Assembly: GCA_965217865.1 (NCBI GenBank)
Contig: CBDCJO010000002.1
Coordinates: 3,456,001-3,520,000 of the forward strand
Length of the DNA stretch: 64,000 nucleotides
From: Candidatus Latescibacterota bacterium
GTDB taxonomy: Bacteria; Latescibacterota; UBA2968; SICM01
Direction: 5' to 3'
Below, in pieces: positions 2,310-12,715 of this stretch. Within the stretch, counting starts at the first letter, position 1; every line of letters begins with the position of its first letter. A program made the position numbers and the translations under genes. Under the pieces are notes generated by a model. That model worked only from the letters and a program-made list of their open reading frames with translations. It searched no databases and was not told where the DNA came from.

Positions 2310-5300
2310 TTGAAGTCATCCGTTTCACCCGAAAGCCTCAGGATCCAATCCCAAAGGAGGGATGAAATTTCCAATTATCCTGTCCAGGTCCCACGATTCC
2401 TCGCCCTGTGCATCCCCCTGGTCTTCTGGTCGATCGAAATTTCAGCCCAGGCCGCTGGTACGATCGGGACCTTTGCGGGAGGGGGTACCTCCGAAGCGGA
2501 TACCCTTGCGACGGCGTCCCGGCTTATTCTTCCCACAGGACTGGCGGTGGACGGGGAAGGCAATGTCTTTATTGCCGACCCGGGTGCGCACCTTGTGAGA
2601 CGGGTGGATGCGGAGAGCGGGATCATTACGACCGTCGCGGGCACCGGGGAACCGGGGTTTGACGGAGATGAGGGTCCTGCCGTTCAAGCACGGCTGAACC
2701 GTCCGATCGGGGTTGCGGTGGATGGGGATGGCAATCTGTTTATCGCCGATAGGGGGAACCGGAGGGTCCGGCGGGTCGACCGAACGAGCGGGATCGTTAC
2801 GACTTTCGCTGGGACCGGGGAACCGGGGTTTGACGGAGATGAGGGACCGGCTGCGGAGACCCAACTCTACGAGGTTGTGGGGCTCGCCGTCGATAGCGGA
2901 AACAATCTCCTGATCGTGGACGGGGGAACGGTCGTAGAGGACCCGTTCTTCGGGAGCCGCATCGTGGGGAATCACCGGATCCGCAGGGTGGATGCGAACA
3001 CGGGGATCATCTCCACGATCGCCGGGACCGGGGTCGCGGATTTCAGCGGGGACAACGGTCCCGCGATCTCGGCAGCCCTCTCGTTTCCCTCCCGTGTCGC
3101 GGTTGATGCATCAGGCAGGATTTTGATCTCCGATTCGGGAAATCACCGGGTGCGCGTGATTGACCCGGAAAACGGAATCATCTCGACCTTCGCGGGTGTG
3201 GGTGGAGATCCGTTTACCGGAGCGGGCGGCTTTTCCGGGGACGGGGGGTTGGCGACTCTTGCGGGTCTGGACAGTCCGGTCGGTCTCGCCTTTGACGATG
3301 AAGGCAACGTCTTTATCTCCGATCAGGGAAACAACAGGGTTCGATGGGTGGACACGAACGGTGTGATCTTCAGCGTGGCTGGGACTGGAAGGGGGGAATT
3401 CGGTGGGGATGGGGGTTTCAGCTTTCAAGCTGGACTCGATCTTCCTTCGGACGTCGACCTGCTTCCGAGGGGTGATCTGCTCGTGGCCGACTCGGGGAAC
3501 GGACGAATCCGGAGACTCTTCGGGCCCAGGACGCTCATTCCGCTCGGCGACGCTGTCCAGGAGGTCGATTTCGGAGGTGCCACCCTAGAGACCACGAGGG
3601 AGAGAACGGTCTCCGTGCGGAATGTGGGGAACGCCCCCCTCGGGATAAGGGAAATCCGAACCGATAACCCTTTGTTCGTGGTCCTCGACACAAGCCTGAC
3701 CCTCGCGGTCGGGGACAGCCTCGTGGTCTCCCTTAGTTTTACTCCGGAGACCCCCGTGAGAGTTGAGGGGATCCTCACGATCTTAACGAATGATCCGGTG
3801 GGCCGGCTCACGGTGACCCTTACCGGCCTTGGAACCATCCCCGATATCCTGCTTCTCGATCAGAGCATCAATTTCCTTCCTCTTGTGATCGGGTTGTCCG
3901 ACACGCTCGAGGTGACCCTGTTTAACCGTGGGATCGGTGATCTTTTTGTCCGGTCCGTGACCAGCTCAGATGCACAATTTATCTCCCCGGACACCCTGTT
4001 TTCGCTCAGCTCCGGCCAGAACATGCAACTGCGCGTCATCTTTTCACCCGCGTTGGTCGGAGAGCAGACGGGCACGCTCACGATCCAGAGCAACGACCCT
4101 GATGCGGGGGCAGTAACCCTCGATCTTCGCGGGGTCGGCAGGCCGGCAAAGCCCGGTGGGTTTACTGCGATCGGGGACAGTCTGGGCCTTGGAGGGACCG
4201 GGCGGGAGTTCGGGGTGGCCTGGGGGGACTATAACGGAGATGGGAGTCCGGACCTCTACATCGCGAGAAGCCTCCTTCCGGGTTCTCTCCATCGGAACAA
4301 TGGGGACATGACATTCACCGATATGGCTGTCGGGCTGAACGTCACCAACGATCGGGACGGCAGCGCGCCGTTGTGGGGGGATTACGACAATGACGGGGAT
4401 CTGGATCTTTTCGTGACAAATTTCAACGAGCCGAATCGGCTGTACCGGAATGACGGAACGGGATTCGTCGACGTCGCCGGGGCGGCCGGACTCGACGCTG
4501 CCACGGCGGGGATGGGCGGGGCCTGGGCGGACTACGACATCGACGGGGATCTCGATCTCTTCGTGGCCAACTTCGGTCCCGATCACCTCTATCGGAACGA
4601 CGGCGGGCTATTCGTGGATGTATCGCCCGGGCTTGGTCTCGTGGATTCCCTCGGAAGCAGCGTTCAGCCGGCCTGGGCGGATTACGACCAGGATGGCGAC
4701 CCGGACCTGTATGTGGCGGCCAGCGGGAGAGATCGGTTTTTCGAGAACGATAACGGTCTGTTTGAGGAGATCGGGGACTCTCTGATGGTGATCGATCACG
4801 CGCCCAGCTTCGGGGCAGCCTGGGGGGACTACGACAACGACGCGGACCTGGACTTGTTCGTCACAGGGTTCAACACCGTATCGCATCTGTATCGAAACGA
4901 TGGGGGGTCGTTCGAAGACGTGGAGGGGAGCCTTTTTTTTGAAGACGACGGTACCTGGAAGTCGCGGGGAGCCGTCTGGATAGATTATGACAACGACGGA
5001 GACCTGGATATCTATATCGTGCGGAGCAACCAGACGAACCTTCTCTACCGGAATGATGGGGGGGCCTTCACCGAGGTGGGCGAGGAGCTCGGGGTCGATT
5101 TGCTCGGGGATGGGCGGGGCGCCGCGATTTCCGACTTCGACGGCGATGGTGCACCCGACCTGTACGTGGCCAACCAGGACGGTCCGGGCCGCCTCTACTG
5201 GAATCGCGAAGCCCTTGGGGGCTGGCTTGCAGCCCAACTGGTCGGTAGTTTGAGCTCGACGGATGCGATCGGTACGCGTGTTCTGGCGGTATTCGATGGG

Positions 5301-7064
5301 CGGCCTCTCCTTCAGGAGGTCAGCGGAGGATCCTCACACCTCTCCCAGAGCGGGGCGGTCCTCCTGTTTGGAGCGGGACGGGCGGAGTTCGCGGATACGC
5401 TGACCGTCCGTTGGCCCAGCGGGATCGTCCAGGTGCTGAATGCCCTTCCGGAAGGCCGGCTCACCCGGATCGAGGAGACGCCACCCAGTCCCGCATCCCG
5501 GATCGAGTTGACGACTTCCGCGACGGAGTTGATCGCAAACGGCGCCTCGACGGCAAGGCTCATTGCCTCGGTCTTGGACGCGAGGGGAGAACGATCCTTG
5601 AGCAGCCGGGCAACGATCACCTTTGGAATCGATTCGGGGCAGGGGAGGCTCGAAGGACCGTTGACGGTCGAAGCCCGCGATGGGGTGGCATCGATCCTGT
5701 TCCGTTCGCCCGATCTGGTACCGGGACGGACCTCAATCTCAGCGCGTTCGCCCGGGTTAACGAGCGGGCGGGTCGAGATCGATCTTTTCCCCACACCTGC
5801 CGGAGGCGCGATCGCTGTGGCGGCGGGAAGCGGTCTGACCGGGCTGAGCGGAGACGGGGGCCCAGCTATAGAGGCGGGGCTCAGCCTTCCGGAAGGGGTT
5901 GCGGTCGCCGACACGCTGGGCACGATCTACATCGCCGACACGAACAACAGCGCCGTGAGGCGTGTGGACGGGGGGTCCGGGGTGATTTCGACCCTGGCCG
6001 GAAACGGGGTACGTGGAAGCACAGGGGACGGGGGGCCTGCTTCGGAAGCGCGCCTGAACACCCCATCGGATGTCCTGGTCACATCGGACAACCGGCTCCT
6101 GATCGTGGATACGGGAAACCACAGAATCAGGCAGATCCACCTGGACACCGGGATCATATCGACCCTTGTCGGGGTCGGGTTCCTCGGGAGTGAGGGGGAC
6201 GGGGGCCCCGGCGCAGAGGCAAACCTGTTCTTTCCGACATCGGCCGCGCTCGACTCCCTCGGCAATCTCTATATCGTGGACACAAACAACCATCGCATCC
6301 GCCGGGTGGATCGAGCGACGGACATCATCAGCACGGTCGCCGGAGACGGATCGGCCGGGTACTCCGGGGATGACGGTCCGGCTTTCCGGGCAAGCCTCAA
6401 CCAACCCCAGGGGATCGCTTTCGACCCCGAAGGCCGCCTCTACATCGCGGACACGGAAAACCATCGCATCCGCCGGGTGGACCTGGTCACAGGAACAATC
6501 ACCACTGTTGTCGGAGACGGCCAAAACATATTTGCAGGTGATGGGGGACCAGCCCGGGAGGCCAGTCTCAACGGGCCCAGGCGCCTGGCCATAGGCCCAG
6601 GGGATGACATCTACATCGCGGACACCGGAAACCATCGCCTGCGAAGGGTGGATGCCGGAACGGGTCTGATCACGACCGTGGCGGGGACGGGGGTCGTGGG
6701 GTTCAACGGGAGGGAAGGTGAGGATGCGAGGGAGATCCAATTGAACGAACCGGTGGGGATCTCCCTGGAAGGGACAGAGGGTTTGTTCCTGACGGACCGG
6801 GGAAACCATCTGGTTCGACGACTCACGATCAAAAAGCAGGATGTTCCGATTGATTCCGTGACCTCCGATTTCGACAGTGACGGGGAGGTGGGGCTCGAGG
6901 ATTTCTTTCTTTTCGTGGAGAAATTCGGAACAATGGAAGGAGAGCCAACGTTCGACGCCAGTTTCGACCTGGTGAAGGATGGAACCGTCGACTTCAACGA
7001 TTTTTTCGTTTTCGCGGGACAGTTCGGGAGACGGACTACCAAACCCGTTTTCTTTTCCCGTTGA
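2310..7064 (+). CDS. Large secreted multidomain protein: NHL repeats, Ig-like (choice-of-anchor D-like) domains, FG-GAP/CRTAC1-ASPIC/UnbV region, second NHL block, C-terminal EF-hand/dockerin-like tail
   Basis: Repeated IAD(T/S)GNHRIRRVD..TGIITTVAG.G..GFSGDGGPA; WGDYDNDGDLDL repeats; VRWPSG; DFDSDGEVGLEDFFLF tail; true start uncertain. Confidence 0.85.
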   Translation: MKSSVSPESLRIQSQRRDEISNYPVQVPRFLALCIPLVFWSIEISAQAAGTIGTFAGGGTSEADTLATASRLILPTGLAVDGEGNVFIADPGAHLVRRVDAESGIITTVAGTGEPGFDGDEGPAVQARLNRPIGVAVDGDGNLFIADRGNRRVRRVDRTSGIVTTFAGTGEPGFDGDEGPAAETQLYEVVGLAVDSGNNLLIVDGGTVVEDPFFGSRIVGNHRIRRVDANTGIISTIAGTGVADFSGDNGPAISAALSFPSRVAVDASGRILISDSGNHRVRVIDPENGIISTFAGVGGDPFTGAGGFSGDGGLATLAGLDSPVGLAFDDEGNVFISDQGNNRVRWVDTNGVIFSVAGTGRGEFGGDGGFSFQAGLDLPSDVDLLPRGDLLVADSGNGRIRRLFGPRTLIPLGDAVQEVDFGGATLETTRERTVSVRNVGNAPLGIREIRTDNPLFVVLDTSLTLAVGDSLVVSLSFTPETPVRVEGILTILTNDPVGRLTVTLTGLGTIPDILLLDQSINFLPLVIGLSDTLEVTLFNRGIGDLFVRSVTSSDAQFISPDTLFSLSSGQNMQLRVIFSPALVGEQTGTLTIQSNDPDAGAVTLDLRGVGRPAKPGGFTAIGDSLGLGGTGREFGVAWGDYNGDGSPDLYIARSLLPGSLHRNNGDMTFTDMAVGLNVTNDRDGSAPLWGDYDNDGDLDLFVTNFNEPNRLYRNDGTGFVDVAGAAGLDAATAGMGGAWADYDIDGDLDLFVANFGPDHLYRNDGGLFVDVSPGLGLVDSLGSSVQPAWADYDQDGDPDLYVAASGRDRFFENDNGLFEEIGDSLMVIDHAPSFGAAWGDYDNDADLDLFVTGFNTVSHLYRNDGGSFEDVEGSLFFEDDGTWKSRGAVWIDYDNDGDLDIYIVRSNQTNLLYRNDGGAFTEVGEELGVDLLGDGRGAAISDFDGDGAPDLYVANQDGPGRLYWNREALGGWLAAQLVGSLSSTDAIGTRVLAVFDGRPLLQEVSGGSSHLSQSGAVLLFGAGRAEFADTLTVRWPSGIVQVLNALPEGRLTRIEETPPSPASRIELTTSATELIANGASTARLIASVLDARGERSLSSRATITFGIDSGQGRLEGPLTVEARDGVASILFRSPDLVPGRTSISARSPGLTSGRVEIDLFPTPAGGAIAVAAGSGLTGLSGDGGPAIEAGLSLPEGVAVADTLGTIYIADTNNSAVRRVDGGSGVISTLAGNGVRGSTGDGGPASEARLNTPSDVLVTSDNRLLIVDTGNHRIRQIHLDTGIISTLVGVGFLGSEGDGGPGAEANLFFPTSAALDSLGNLYIVDTNNHRIRRVDRATDIISTVAGDGSAGYSGDDGPAFRASLNQPQGIAFDPEGRLYIADTENHRIRRVDLVTGTITTVVGDGQNIFAGDGGPAREASLNGPRRLAIGPGDDIYIADTGNHRLRRVDAGTGLITTVAGTGVVGFNGREGEDAREIQLNEPVGISLEGTEGLFLTDRGNHLVRRLTIKKQDVPIDSVTSDFDSDGEVGLEDFFLFVEKFGTMEGEPTFDASFDLVKDGTVDFNDFFVFAGQFGRRTTKPVFFSR

Positions 7065-7905: not shown

Positions 7906-8211
7906 ATGCGCAGACACACCCGGTTTCTCGTCGTCCAGCTGCTTTTCGCACTGTTCCTGTCGTGCATCTTTCCCATCTCCCTCCTTTCACAGGAGGACGC
8001 CGGGGGGACCGGGTCCCCCGGCTGGATGGAGCATTTGATCCTGAAACTGAATGAACACGTCGGGCACATCGTCAGTTATATGGCGGACATCCTTTTTGCG
8101 GATTTCAGGACGGGTGTCCCTCTGATCGTTGTGGTCCTGGTGGCCGGCGGGGTTTACTTCTCCTTCTTCTTCGGATGGATGTCAATCCGGGGATTTCGGC
8201 ACGCCATCCAC
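7906..8211 (+). pseudogene. Alanine/glycine:cation symporter (AgcS/AlsT family), 5' part, interrupted by IS110
   Basis: Reads ...GFRHAIH and continues in frame as VIRGRYDDP at 10127 once the IS is removed. Confidence 0.88.
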
Positions 8212-8340
8212 TACATGCGGAAAGTCAAGAGCAAGGTTGACGATTTCGAGGTTGGATGAGATTTTTTATGCCGGTTTTCTCAGCGTCAAGGGGTGTAAAG
8301 TGGACATTCTTACTATGTTCGGAGCGCAGTTCGCCCTTAT

Positions 8341-8618
8341 GGTGCAGGACCGGTCTTTGAAGAGGGGCGAAGCTCCCGTGTGGGGGGTGGTGTCTTCCGA
8401 TACCAACTTACATCCGCGGCCGGCACTCTTGTTTGTGTGAGTAGGTGTGCCGGTCTTCGCGCATTTTCTAATCCGATCCAGGAAGACGGGGAGGCCTGCG
8501 GATCTGTTAGCCGAAGCGACTCCTATCGGAGCCCTCCTCTCAAGCCAGTTCTGCAGGCCGCCCCTGGCCGCCTTGGAAGGCGGCAGCTTGTGTAACCGGT
8601 CCGGCAGGAGACTGCACC
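8341..8618 (-). ncRNA. Candidate IS110 bridge/seek RNA in the 3' non-coding end
   Basis: Closing stem GGTGCAG..GGACCGGT with ACCGGTCCTGCACC encloses two hairpins with large internal loops; loop segments resemble the circle junction. Confidence 0.55.
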
Positions 8619-8669
8619 GGATGTGAATCGAGCAGCGATGTCAAAGAGCGAGTGTGACCGCGGCAGCGG

Positions 8670-10002
8670 TCAGGCGGCGGCGCGAGCGCGCCGTCGGGGA
8701 TGCTGCTTTTTCTTGTAGCGCTTCATGTAGCGCCTCTCGAGCGTTTTGAGGGATGCCGCGGGGTGGTCTCTCTCCTCGTAGAGACGATTTTCTCTGAGCA
8801 GGGCTACGATGAGCCGTAGGAGCTGGGACGAGGCGGCCACGATATTCTTGCGGTAGCACTTCTTCCTGAGCTCGCGTTCGAGGAAGCGGCGGCGGACCTG
8901 GGGCACGACCCGGGCGGTCTGTTCGGTCATCTGGGTAGATGATTCGCCGCAGCCGGGGATTGCCGATCTTGCTCATCCGCCTTTTGCCTTTGTACTTTCC
9001 GGAGTCGGCGATGCGCACGTTCGTGCCGGCGAGCTTCTCGATCTGTTTGAAGTGGGTGAAGCGGGTGGCCCCTCGCGTCTCCGCGGTAAATTGGGCAGCC
9101 AGGTTTTTGTTGATGTTGGGGATCGAGTCGACGATTTGGAAAGTCGGATCCTGCTGAGTGCGGGCGATCATCGCCTGCTCCACAGCTTTGAGTTGCGTCT
9201 CGGTCCGCCGGAGCGCCTCGATCCAGCCATTCAGGATGATGCGGAGGACATCTTCCTGGCCCTCGACCGGGATCCCGATGGAGGTCCGGGCCTCCTCCTT
9301 CAGCTTCTGCAGCGTCGCCACCCCGTAACTGCCTCTTGAGATCCGATGGATCTGGCGGCCCTCCTCTTCGATGTCAATTTCCTCGAAGTGGCGGGGCAAG
9401 AAATATCGCTCCAACAGGTAGCGGGAGGTCTTCGTACGAATGTTGACCGCGTGGAGGAACTCCGGGAAGACGCGTTCCATCAGAGACCGGGTGCGGAGCA
9501 GGGACTTTGTGAGGTCCTTCCGGAGCTTGTCGTAGGCGATTGAGAGCTGGTGCGCGGCCTCCATGTGAGGCTCGAACGTCCTGAAGAGATCATAGCTTCC
9601 CTTCTGTGCGCTGTCGGCCACCAGAAAGGCATCCCTGGGATCCGACTTGGAGAAATCGCGGTGCATCATCGGTCTTGCGTGATACGTCGTGAGGGGGCTC
9701 ACCAGCAGCACGCGATACCCCTTCCCCTGGAGGTAGTGGGCCAGGGTAACCCACAGATTGCAGGACGTCTCGATGGCCACCACCATCCGATCCGGCCCGC
9801 AATCTTTGATGCGTCGCTCCAGATGCTGCCAGAGGGTATGGTCATATCCCGCTCGCGTCACGGGGAATGAGAAGGCCCCGCCTTGCTGAAGTCCGGAGGG
9901 ATCGAGCACCGACCCGCTGTGTTTTTCCTTGCCCGGATCGATCCCGAGGACGAAATTCTGGGAGATGGCCTGTCGTTTAAGGTGGAAGATTTTCGACTTC
10001 AT
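8670..10002 (-). CDS. IS110 recombinase/transposase with a frameshift near 8935 (real or sequencing indel)
   Basis: LGIDPGK, IETS, KSDPRDA, LAG...SG...SKIGNPRLRR; C-terminus continues in ORF 8670..8930. Confidence 0.88.
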
Positions 10003-10126
10003 CGTATACCTCCAGCGTTGAGGGTTGAGTTTGCTTGCGCTTGCCGAATCTTAAGACACCTTGCCTTGCAAGGGAAGATTCAGCCCCTCAACGCTGTTTT
10101 TTCCTCCTTTACTCAATATAGAAATC

Positions 10127-11440
10127 GTTATCCGGGGGCGCTATGACGACCCCAAGGACCCGGGTGAGATCTCCCATTTTCAGGCCCTCACCAGCGCGCT
10201 TTCCGCAACGATCGGCCTGGGCAACATCGCAGGTGTGGCCATCGCCGTGGGTCTGGGGGGGCCCGGCGCGGTCTTCTGGATGATCCTCACCGCCCTGTTC
10301 GGGATGTCTTCAAAACTCGCTTCCTGCACGCTGGCTGTCATGTACCGCAAGGTTCACCCGGACGGCCATATATCCGGAGGTCCGATGTACTATCTGGAGC
10401 AGGGGCTCCGGGAAAAGGGGCTGCGGCCGCTCGGCCGCACACTGGCCGTCCTCTTCGCTCTCCTCACCATCGGGGGTTCCCTGGGGGGAGGGAACATGTT
10501 CCAGGCCAACCAGACGGTGGAGATCTTCAGCACCATCTCCGAGGACTTCAGGACCTACAACTGGGTGCTTGGTCTCTGCTTCTCGGTCATGGTTGGCATC
10601 GTGATCATCGGCGGTATCCGCCGGATTGGCCGGGTCACGTCCCGTATCGTTCCGTTTATGTGCCTCACCTACGTGATCACGGCGATCCTGATCATCCTTT
10701 CCCATCTTTCCGATGTCCCGGAGATAATCGCAACGATCGTCCGTGAAGCCTTCACGGGACCCGCGGTTTATGGCGGTTTCATCGGAATTCTGGTCACGGG
10801 GGTGAAGCGAGCGGCTTTCTCGAACGAGGCCGGCCTCGGGTCCGCTGCATTTGCGCATTCGGCGGCAAAGACCAATGAGGCCGCGCGCGAAGGTATGGTC
10901 GCGATGATCGGCCCCTTTATTGACACGATCGTCATCTGTCTGATGACCGCATTGGTTTGTATGATTACGGGTGTTTATAACGACCCGCAGTTCCAGGGTC
11001 AGGGCGATTTCGTCGTGGGGGCCAGGATGACGGCCGCGGCCTTCGAGTCGTCCATACCCGGTTCCCGCTACGTCCTTTCGCTGGCCGTCATGCTCTTTGC
11101 TTACTCAACGATGATCTCCTGGTCCTACTACGGGGAACGGGCGTGGGAATATCTCTTTGGGGCCAAATCCATCCTTGTCTTTCGGATCATCTTTGTCTGC
11201 TTCGTCTTTATCGGATCGGTCACCACCTTGAGAAATGTGCTGGACTTTTCGGATATGATGATCCTCGGCATGGCCTTCCCGAATATTATCGGGGTCGTGA
11301 TACTGAGTCCGCAGGTCAAGGCGACTCTGAACGAGTACTGGGGGCGGCTGAAATCGGGACAGATGGTCCCATACCGGGAGGGGCATAAAGTCCAGGATTC
11401 CCGCGGCTCGATGGATGATCCGGGAAAAGCCCGGCCTTAA
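10127..11440 (+). pseudogene. Alanine/glycine:cation symporter, 3' part
   Basis: ISHFQALTSALSATIGLGNIAGVA, GGPGAVFW, GGPMYY, FSNEAGLGSA, FIDTIVIC. Confidence 0.92.
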
Positions 11441-11512: not shown

Positions 11513-11830
11513 TCAGGTTGGGTTTTTCGATTCGCGGTAGTCTTTAAGGAGGGAAGCCCGCACAGCGTCTTGAGCAGATTTCACCGGAACTATATGGAGC
11601 ACGGCATAAAAACGGCGCCGATCTGAGTTCTGGACTGGTTCGCTCCAGGCATAGCAGACCGACGCTTCTTTATGGCCCTTCAAGTTAAAAACGTGCACAT
11701 CATCTTCCCATACGGTCTGGCCCTGAAAGGTTTCGTGGACGTGTTCGATATGACTGAAGATGGCTTTGCAGGAATGGAGGCCCTCTACGGTTTCTTTAAG
11801 TTCCTTCTGGCCCACTTTCTTCATCTTCAC
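11513..11830 (-). CDS. Hypothetical passenger protein inside the IS1-like element
   Basis: Intact 105-aa ORF between the IS ends. Confidence 0.65.
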   Translation of the reverse strand: MKMKKVGQKELKETVEGLHSCKAIFSHIEHVHETFQGQTVWEDDVHVFNLKGHKEASVCYAWSEPVQNSDRRRFYAVLHIVPVKSAQDAVRASLLKDYRESKNPT

Positions 11831-11929
11831 CTTTCAACAAGTCATCATCCACAAGGAAGGTTTTCAATTGTTTCAAATGTTCCATTGCAGATTCCAATTT
11901 CCTCCACTCCTCTGAGGTCATCGGATTGG

Positions 11930-12715
11930 GTAAACGTAAGGAGATCTACAGAGCGTATAGTGGAAACTCACAGAGACACGATACTAAGGCTGATGTGCCG
12001 TGTTGGGGCTGGATGTGAGAAATTGATGGATTCTGAGATGCGGAATCTGTCTTGTGAGCGGATTCAGTTGGATGAAATTTGGGGCTTTGTTGGGAAAAAG
12101 CAACGACACCTAAAGGAAGGGGATGATGTGGCAAGCCTTGGGGATACGTGGACCTTCGTGGCCTTGGATGCGAAATCGAAGCTGGTGCCTACCTACAAGG
12201 TGGGAAACCGAGATTCGGCAACCGCTCAAGTCTTCTTGGATGATTTGGCTTCCAGGCTGACTGGCAGGATACAGTTATCGTCTGATGCCTTTAGCGTATA
12301 TTTTGAGACCGTTGACCGGGCGTTCGGCACAAATGTTGATTATGGACAAATCGTAAAGGTCTATGAAGCCGAACCTATTGGGGCTGGTAGGTATAGCCCG
12401 CCCAAAGTTACTGGGGCAAGGCGTCAAAGCCTATGGGGAAATCCCGATCCAGCACACATCTCAACCAGCCACGTTGAGAGACAGAATCTCACTATGAGAA
12501 TGAGCATGAGGCGGTTCACCAGATTAACCAATGCATTCTCAAAGAAGTTGGATAACCTCAAGGCAGCGGTGGCCCTTCACTTCGCATACTATAATTTCGT
12601 CAGGATTCATAAGACGCTGGGTATCACACCAGCGATGGAGGCAGGGGTTACAGGTAGGCTTTGGTCGCTTGGGAATCTTATGGATGCGGCAATGGATCAC
12701 AATCATGCAAAATAA
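11930..12715 (+). pseudogene. IS1-family DDE transposase, apparently missing its N-terminal HTH start
   Basis: HRDTILRL, QLDEIWGFV, QLSSDA, STSHVERQNLTMRMSMRRFTRLTNAFSKK, TPAMEAG. Confidence 0.8.

Follow-up and report, generated by a model that had tools for sequence, protein, structure and literature searches.

An IS110-family element lies in a 64,000-nucleotide stretch of DNA from a Candidatus Latescibacterota bacterium (the window), and the question it raises is whether the non-coding sequence downstream of its recombinase gene encodes a guide RNA, and for which DNA. A first-pass annotation had read this sequence as the guide of an RNA-guided recombinase. Structure and covariation support that reading and predict a bridge RNA, and we consider this sequence to be, very probably, a real bridge-RNA gene. 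The sequence is likely a guide RNA because the letters in its loops shift together with the element's ends and with its landing sites. The main features are as follows.

8211..10125, minus strand: IS110-family element, with its left end at 10125, its right end at 8212 and, beside it, a single core G at 8211
10126..10130, minus strand: left junction TAAC plus core G (10126), TAACG at most left ends
8670..10002, minus strand: DEDD recombinase gene, 443 aa in the siblings, with a +1 frameshift near 8933-8935 in the window copy
8341..8618, minus strand: predicted bridge RNA region with its enclosing stem, from the fold and the homolog consensus; conserved core about 8566-8392

The element, its copies and its recombinase

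To set the boundaries of the element, 12 left junctions and 11 right junctions were aligned within the genome, which contains seven near-full copies, one 5'-truncated copy and fragments. TAACG was aligned at 11 of the 12 left ends and CATGTAG-T at 10 of the 11 right ends, the remaining one being TATGTAG-T. The empty paralogous sites, which are attC-like hairpins, read TAACGT, and so the target and the donor have one G in common. Four of the seven full copies encode an intact recombinase of 443 aa. The window copy and one other carry the +1 frameshift near 8935, and a base there is missing from the contigs of all four DNA runs. Repair of the frameshift before a recombination assay is dispensable because intact sibling copies exist. 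One copy (C2:3761495) has an intact ORF and lacks 11 nt of the left end, among them those of the -10 box and of the donor-right sequence, and is probably immobile because of this loss. At L044 the left junction resembles the right end of another copy (AAGTA-G-ATTTCT), which suggests a tandem insertion or a captured circle junction.

Obvious subterminal inverted repeats of the IS1111 kind had been described as absent, and we agree. None was found above background, the longest perfect repeat in the window element is 5 bp, and the mean repeat length was 5.46 in homolog end pairs compared to 5.36 in shuffled end pairs (41 clusters). A candidate pair, CTTTGCTC/GAGTAAAG, which matches at 7/8 by eye, was no better than shuffled ends. 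Across the homolog clusters, the median length was 124 nt for the left end and 427 nt for the right end.

The recombinase contains the Pfam domains PF01548 and PF02371, lies above the cut-off of NF033542, and has the DEDD RuvC domain and the C-terminal domain with a catalytic SG that define the IS110 family. D22, E78, D121, D124 and S334 were invariant across 56 homologs, the alignment being composed of P0001 and 55 of the 120 homologs listed. In the G--P----SG motif the usual proline is V or L in this clade, and the window protein reads AGTNVRIADSG. The best plasmid matches were IS110 proteins of about 400 aa from Bacillota, at 25-28% identity, and the only sequence relatives in the PDB were 9t56 and 8wt6. 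The length of the recombinase, its motif and its best matches point toward the long IS110 group. The SCNL motif, a hallmark of the clade, had no match in the curated ISfinder protein file of PMC11187229, where a control motif had 17.

The protein alignment search yielded 80 metagenome and 35 genome loci at 34-89% identity, from sources that include Nitrospirota, Bacteroidota, Ignavibacteriota, Calditrichota, Marinimicrobia and others. Among close relatives the element was present in one other genome of 60, and in one other of 167 in a second set. Neither a homolog nor a circle junction was found in viral contigs, in which six right-end pattern matches occurred, none with the RNA beside it.

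Fold of the RNA and its conservation

All motifs of the first-pass annotation were present on the minus strand where it had placed them. The outer stem pairs 8618-8593 with 8354-8341 and encloses hairpin A (8564-8487) and hairpin B (8486-8392); we also found an extra hairpin (8586-8567) that was absent from the earlier description. When 8341-8618 was folded, its MFE was -121.9 kcal/mol compared to -99.9 +/- 5.3 kcal/mol for 200 dinucleotide shuffles, none of which was as good (0/200; z -4.14).

8513..8537, minus strand: apical stem of the target loop (GGAG/CTTC), with compensatory pairs (z 3-9)

The structure is conserved among homologs. Of the 104 homolog loci with the ORF end on the contig, 97 had a match to an RNA profile on the 3' side of the ORF; 74 of the 97 had seeded this profile. 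A consensus of 61 cluster representatives, made without L005, L036, L096, L100 and L115 (RNA truncated or with an insertion), recovered both loops with compensatory changes, and its loop-closing and apical stems carried many two-sided changes. The individual homolog RNAs folded at z<-2 in 44 of 60 cases. The outer stem of the first-pass annotation, present in the window element, proved general only weakly among homologs, with z<-2 against its own shuffles in 18 of 52 clusters (median -1.25). RNAalifold on a 35-sequence alignment (A2) returned the apical target stem alone, a result of truncated 5' arms in several sequences; both loops emerged from the full alignment. The apical TACTCA of hairpin B was considered as a left-end guide and rejected, the segment not being conserved. 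In L115 and L096, short hairpin-like insertions (~25-30 nt) break the 3' TAAC guide region of the target loop.

No match was found in Rfam apart from two chance-level hits far below the gathering score. This, together with RNA-run contigs that are not diagnostic of a discrete transcript, would fit a fold that is a structured 3' UTR or a terminator with loop matches arising by chance. We give this explanation next to no credence, since no terminator-like site was found on the minus strand, and the loops covary with host flanks as well as with DNA at distances of 200 to 1,600 nt, which effectively refutes it.

Guides and their covariation with DNA

The guides of the predicted bridge RNA lie in its two loops.

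8502..8510, minus strand: target loop 3' guide CTAAC, with the extra base A8505, core G8504 and predicted handshake AT (8503-8502)
8463..8470, minus strand: donor loop 5' guide TAGAAAAT, which complements the left end of the element with one extra base
8405..8413, minus strand: donor loop 3' guide ATGTA, with the extra base A8408, core G8407 and predicted handshake T8406

The echoes of the donor noted earlier in loop B, TAGAAAAT at 8470-8463 and GATGTAAG at 8414-8407, hold, and these guides covary with the element ends. The nine bases CGGCTAACA (8513-8505), taken earlier as the guide of loop A, held in part: TAAC is supported as a guide, the rest of the 9-mer is not, and C8513 lies within a stem.

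Covariation with donor and target, which the first-pass annotation had set as a test of its reading, was present for both. It was measured on one locus per 85%-identity cluster (66 clusters, not fully independent) in about 24,000 tests of an RNA column against a DNA position, and loci without an end were dropped from each position test. The top four tests were donor -2, target -1, donor -4 and target +1, the handshake. Donor -2 agreed with 8410 in 56 of 57 clusters (expected 25.5), and in 57 of 58 in a later count; target -1 agreed with C8506 in 46 of 47, later 47 of 48 with concerted changes; donor -4 agreed with 8412 in 56 of 57; and target +1 agreed with 8406, the donor-loop handshake, in 39 of 55 (expected 18.2), later 40 of 56. 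Target +2 agreed with the donor-loop handshake in only 20 of 55. The pair of donor +3 and 8465 (40/46, later 41/47) came eleventh, in a part of the ranking where signals stem from shared ancestry. When changes were mapped on a tree of 68 proteins, donor -2 showed seven RNA changes and seven DNA changes, all seven joint, and target -1 showed four in RNA, five in DNA and five joint. Natural retargeting was also seen, as TAAT, TAAA and TACA targets were accompanied by corresponding guides.

Both 3' guides follow one pattern, in which the guide is followed by one extra base, the G and then a base matching the partner DNA. The extra base of the target loop was A in 39, T in 19, G in 8 and C in 2 cases. 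The handshake A of the target loop was invariant (48/48), and it is uninformative for this reason. Invariance of the core G among homologs is partly built in, because the end patterns assume a core G; the exceptions were L020, with A at the right core, and L128, apparently with A at the left.

Short target-loop RNAs dominate the pull-downs of ISEc11 and ISKpn4 (PMC11187229) and likewise those of CazIS110-1 (10.1101/2025.10.25.684509), as would be expected if the target hairpin alone acted as a short seekRNA and loop B were dispensable. We consider this very improbable here, because the covariation of loop B with the element ends was the strongest of all (57/58, 58/58 and 57/58) and loop B is therefore under selection for pairing.

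Target sites and the interrupted agcS gene

Most flanks of the element's own copies form long hairpins beginning with TAAC and closing near GTT(A/G), as attC sites do. By a stricter rule, 7 of the 11 right flanks at own sites were attC-like. In the homologs, TAACG was the left junction at 71 of 86 loci, and the right flanks were attC-like in 24 of 38 clusters, compared to 17 of 152 in-gene windows and 12 of 49 further downstream. CGA at +13/+14 was present in 10 of the 11 used sites and in 76 of 857 TAACGT sites (p 3e-10), and in the window element's sites it is explained by none of the guides found.

8195..8198, minus strand: CGAA at target +13, common to the attC-like sites of the sibling copies

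The genome holds arrays of attC-like sites, and no integron integrase was found in it above the cut-off. A frameshifted tyrosine recombinase (L132, G000:C2:1657178-1658300, minus strand) lies beside the attC-like site 1655089; it was the best integron-integrase match and fell below the cut-off. The opposite end of the same attC-like hairpins is occupied by another multicopy element of the IS110 family (347 aa, ~1.64 kb, 12 left ends), with loci at G000:C2:2534141-2535181, L133:5573-6616 (minus strand) and C2:3521503, the last just beyond the end of the window. One site (C2:1984829-1984951) is flanked by both elements.

The site of the window copy is an exception. It is not attC, and the insertion splits agcS, a sodium:alanine symporter gene.

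7906..8210, plus strand: agcS 5' piece, contiguous with the 3' piece in two paralogs
10130..11440, plus strand: agcS 3' piece (PF01235)

The target assumed in the first-pass annotation, CGGATAACG, to which loop A was matched at 7/9, turned out to be the filled junction, the empty allele reading CGGATCACC. The empty agcS site, ...CGGATCACCT..., was found in both paralogs and in four of four DNA runs from three studies, and the right arm of X3 record 8 had one difference in 211. Where the left junction reads AACG, CACC stands in the empty allele, with a guide mismatch at two of the four bases 10129-10126; CGGATAACG is therefore the product and not the substrate. At 10126-10135, the left junction of the window copy is shifted toward the guide relative to the empty allele. 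Ten bases, CCGGATAACG, are common to this junction and the flank of the copy at C2:3240560, and the right flanks also share GTGCC..GAA, which suggests either that the flank was converted from that copy in the course of insertion or that polishing introduced an artefact. As a speculation, copy-out or direct transfer, both routes of CazIS110-1, might explain the altered flank bases of the left junction.

Two further intact agcS paralogs (C2:704856 and C2:441697) are 90-99.6% identical to the flanks of the interrupted copy. Directly after the interrupted gene, the window contains an IS1-family-like transposase ORF (11672-12715, plus strand, PF03400). It also contains, at 2310-7064 (plus strand), a 1584-aa ORF whose repeats resemble a beta-propeller by eye.

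The putative second target guide

The first-pass annotation could not find a second target guide. We located it at the family level as the 5' strand of loop A; for the window element's own sites the match was not significant.

8538..8552, minus strand: target loop 5' strand, the putative second target guide, which pairs right of the crossover in homologs

This strand complements the strand right of the crossover with a z of 7.3 (52 clusters), and the controls, namely the opposite strand, +14..+26 and two other RNA segments, were null (z -1.2 to 0.8). The hexamer at strand positions 3-8, picked after inspection of the data, pairs at 5/6 or better in 30 of 51 clusters, against a null of 7.9 +/- 2.3 with a maximum of 16 in 2000; the other 21 of the 51 were below 5/6. 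With L005 left out of the register test, pairing starts at +4 (2 clusters), +5 (6), +6 (5), +7 (8), +8 (6) or elsewhere (3), that is, within +4..+8 in 27 of 30, at a gap of 3-7 nt from the crossover. Because the register moves, no single column carries the signal. The box that is paired is the conserved attC arm beyond the variable spacer, and L085 and L089 differ by one compensatory change in strand and target. For the window element, whose 5' strand (8552-8538) is one base longer than usual, the best p against its own 11 sites was about 0.03-0.08, uncorrected for 10 windows; L017 (89% identical) matches the family hexamer at 2/6. From these alignments, the second target guide in homologs is probably the 5' strand of loop A, read in a variable register.

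Two other candidates were rejected. AGAAC as a contiguous core-proximal second guide gave p 0.44-0.64. CTTCG as a third guide against the distal CGAA lies in a stem with compensatory changes, and CGA at +13/14 occurs in 5 of 51 clusters only.

It is possible, though less likely than not, that the register of the second guide is fixed for each element with about 1 nt of slack, so that the spread from +4 to +8 lies between elements. L043, L103 and L104 all read +8, L085 and L089 both +4, and both L123 sites +6; extra copies in homolog genomes, sought for the register within an element, gave one match per genome and one extra site. However, identical 14-nt strands read +7 and +8 (L077/L106) and +6 and +5 (L060/L061), such same-strand differences resting on three cross-genome pairs, one at 4/6 only, and the length of the strand is about equal in +4 and +8 readers.

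It is fairly unlikely that the RNA is a bridge RNA and the attC preference comes instead from DNA structure (an extruded or single-stranded hairpin) or from a distal motif, for instance CGAA, that the protein reads, with the 5' strand being minor or pairing with the other arm of the folded site. The window element keeps the strong attC and CGA preference given above without a significant 5'-strand match, and the opposite-arm register is steadier (+5 in 7 of 10 matches). However, the complementarity in the family is strand- and position-specific, the window site has no hairpin, and of 31 clusters, 14 match the near attC arm better and 5 the opposite arm (Wilcoxon p 0.06). The near-arm fit mildly favours recognition of a duplex over that of a folded strand.

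Predicted junction promoter and transcription

If the ends join at one G, the ends of the copies would bring together two promoter boxes.

8223..8228, minus strand: -35 box TTGACT in the right end, conserved at homolog right ends
10115..10120, minus strand: -10 box TATATT of the predicted circle-junction promoter

The spacing would be 17 nt. Of 41 homolog clusters, 35 also give 17 nt, a figure that the end search built in to some extent. By analogy with PMC11187229 and PMC13626964, TTGACT-17 nt-TATATT may be a junction promoter. No circle junction was seen in the four DNA runs or in viral contigs. Four unstranded metatranscriptome runs of one study gave contigs at 95-100% identity, which cover parts of the ORF in all four runs and the RNA region in three (8270-8510, 8496-8706 and 8333-8531). 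These contigs are compatible with read-through from the junction promoter and are not diagnostic of a discrete RNA.

Comparison with known systems

The bridge-RNA class is known. Our element resembles IS621 and ISCro4 (IS622) (PMC11208160, PMC11208158) in its DEDD and Tnp-serine recombinase and in a single RNA with the target loop and then the donor loop as simple internal loops. The promoter that those systems form where their ends join is predicted for ours, and for IS621 a handshake base behind each 3' guide is also described (PMC11208158). Our element differs in having the RNA in the right end and not the left, a recombinase of 443 aa and not 328-341, one shared G in place of a CT core, an extra base in each 3' guide and, at the family level, 3-7 unread bases before one target guide. 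Discontiguous pairing of the IS621 donor guide is reported there as extra RNA bases (PMC11208160). The long RNA-bearing left end, 2-nt core and short protein of the IS621 type were not found here.

The IS1111-attC group (seekRNAs of ISKpn4, ISPst6 and ISPa25; PMC11187229) is alike in having the RNA downstream of the gene, the attC end as target and, for IS1111 seekRNAs, the top-strand complement 5' of the bottom-strand complement. The long RNA-bearing right end, the order of the guides and attC targeting are found in both. However, our element is without subterminal inverted repeats of 7-17 bp, its protein has 443 aa compared to 330-350 aa and lacks the GL-P----S(t)G motif, so that neither the protein nor the ends are of the IS1111 type, and its two target matches are separated, whereas the published ones overlap on the target. 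In the same source, IS110-group elements that carry a non-coding region downstream are already mentioned, as an exception group in Fig. 1b, so the 3' placement without repeats is not new; these have, like ours, a long transposase, no or short inverted repeats and a 3' non-coding region. CazIS110-1 (10.1101/2025.10.25.684509) also has a two-loop RNA; the part of that report covered describes neither attC targeting nor a gapped guide.

In the literature covered, there was no attC-targeting bridge RNA of the IS110 group and no guide of variable register. Single-base cores with bulged guides and gapped guides were likewise absent from it, including the available parts of PMC13626964, PMC12288879 and 10.1101/2024.06.21.599552. 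The clade was also absent, though it may occur among the 72 orthologs that supplement 10.1101/2025.05.14.653916 or in the element tables supplementary to PMC11208160, which lie outside this scope. Relative to that literature, the single-base core with bulged guides, the gapped second guide and the clade are new.

Proposed mechanism and its significance

The element ends, the class of target, the conservation of the structure and the covariation are observed, and from them we outline how the element may move. Its ends would join at the G, creating the promoter from which recombinase and RNA would be co-transcribed and then assembled into an RNP. In the circle, loop B would pair with both element ends. 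Loop A would pair with the target, for which the clade mostly uses the TAAC box in attC-like hairpins of the integron type. Each 3' guide would read the 4-5 bases left of the core, skip one unpaired RNA base and take the core G, after which a handshake base would match the opposite DNA partner. A box of 5-6 nt in the attC arm, starting 4-8 nt right of the core, would be read by loop A's 5' strand, with the variable attC spacer left unread, and strand exchange would cross over at the single shared G. We hold this bridge-RNA mechanism as a whole to be probable, with good confidence. A wider proposal is plausible and stops short of probable: that a multi-phylum, undescribed clade of long IS110 recombinases became independently specialised for attC by a gapped bridge RNA, in which one guide is fixed on the TAAC box with a core of one base and its partner guide floats at 3-7 nt downstream, so that one RNP tolerates variable spacers.

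Bridge recombinases are under engineering for genome rewriting, and their rules come almost entirely from IS621 and ISCro4, with contiguous sites of 11-14 nt and a CT core. The rules of target design would be broadened by a natural clade in which the core is one base, a guide is bulged and a guide crosses a spacer. The clade also supplies a ready-made collection of guide-target pairs from nature, with handshake covariation among them, that lies beyond the IS621 branch. If the proposal is true, it would mean RNA-guided recombination with a programmable target of variable gap. For integron biology, the finding suggests that RNA-guided elements reached attC sites at least twice, and in this genome two different IS110-family elements hold the opposite ends of the same attC-like sites.
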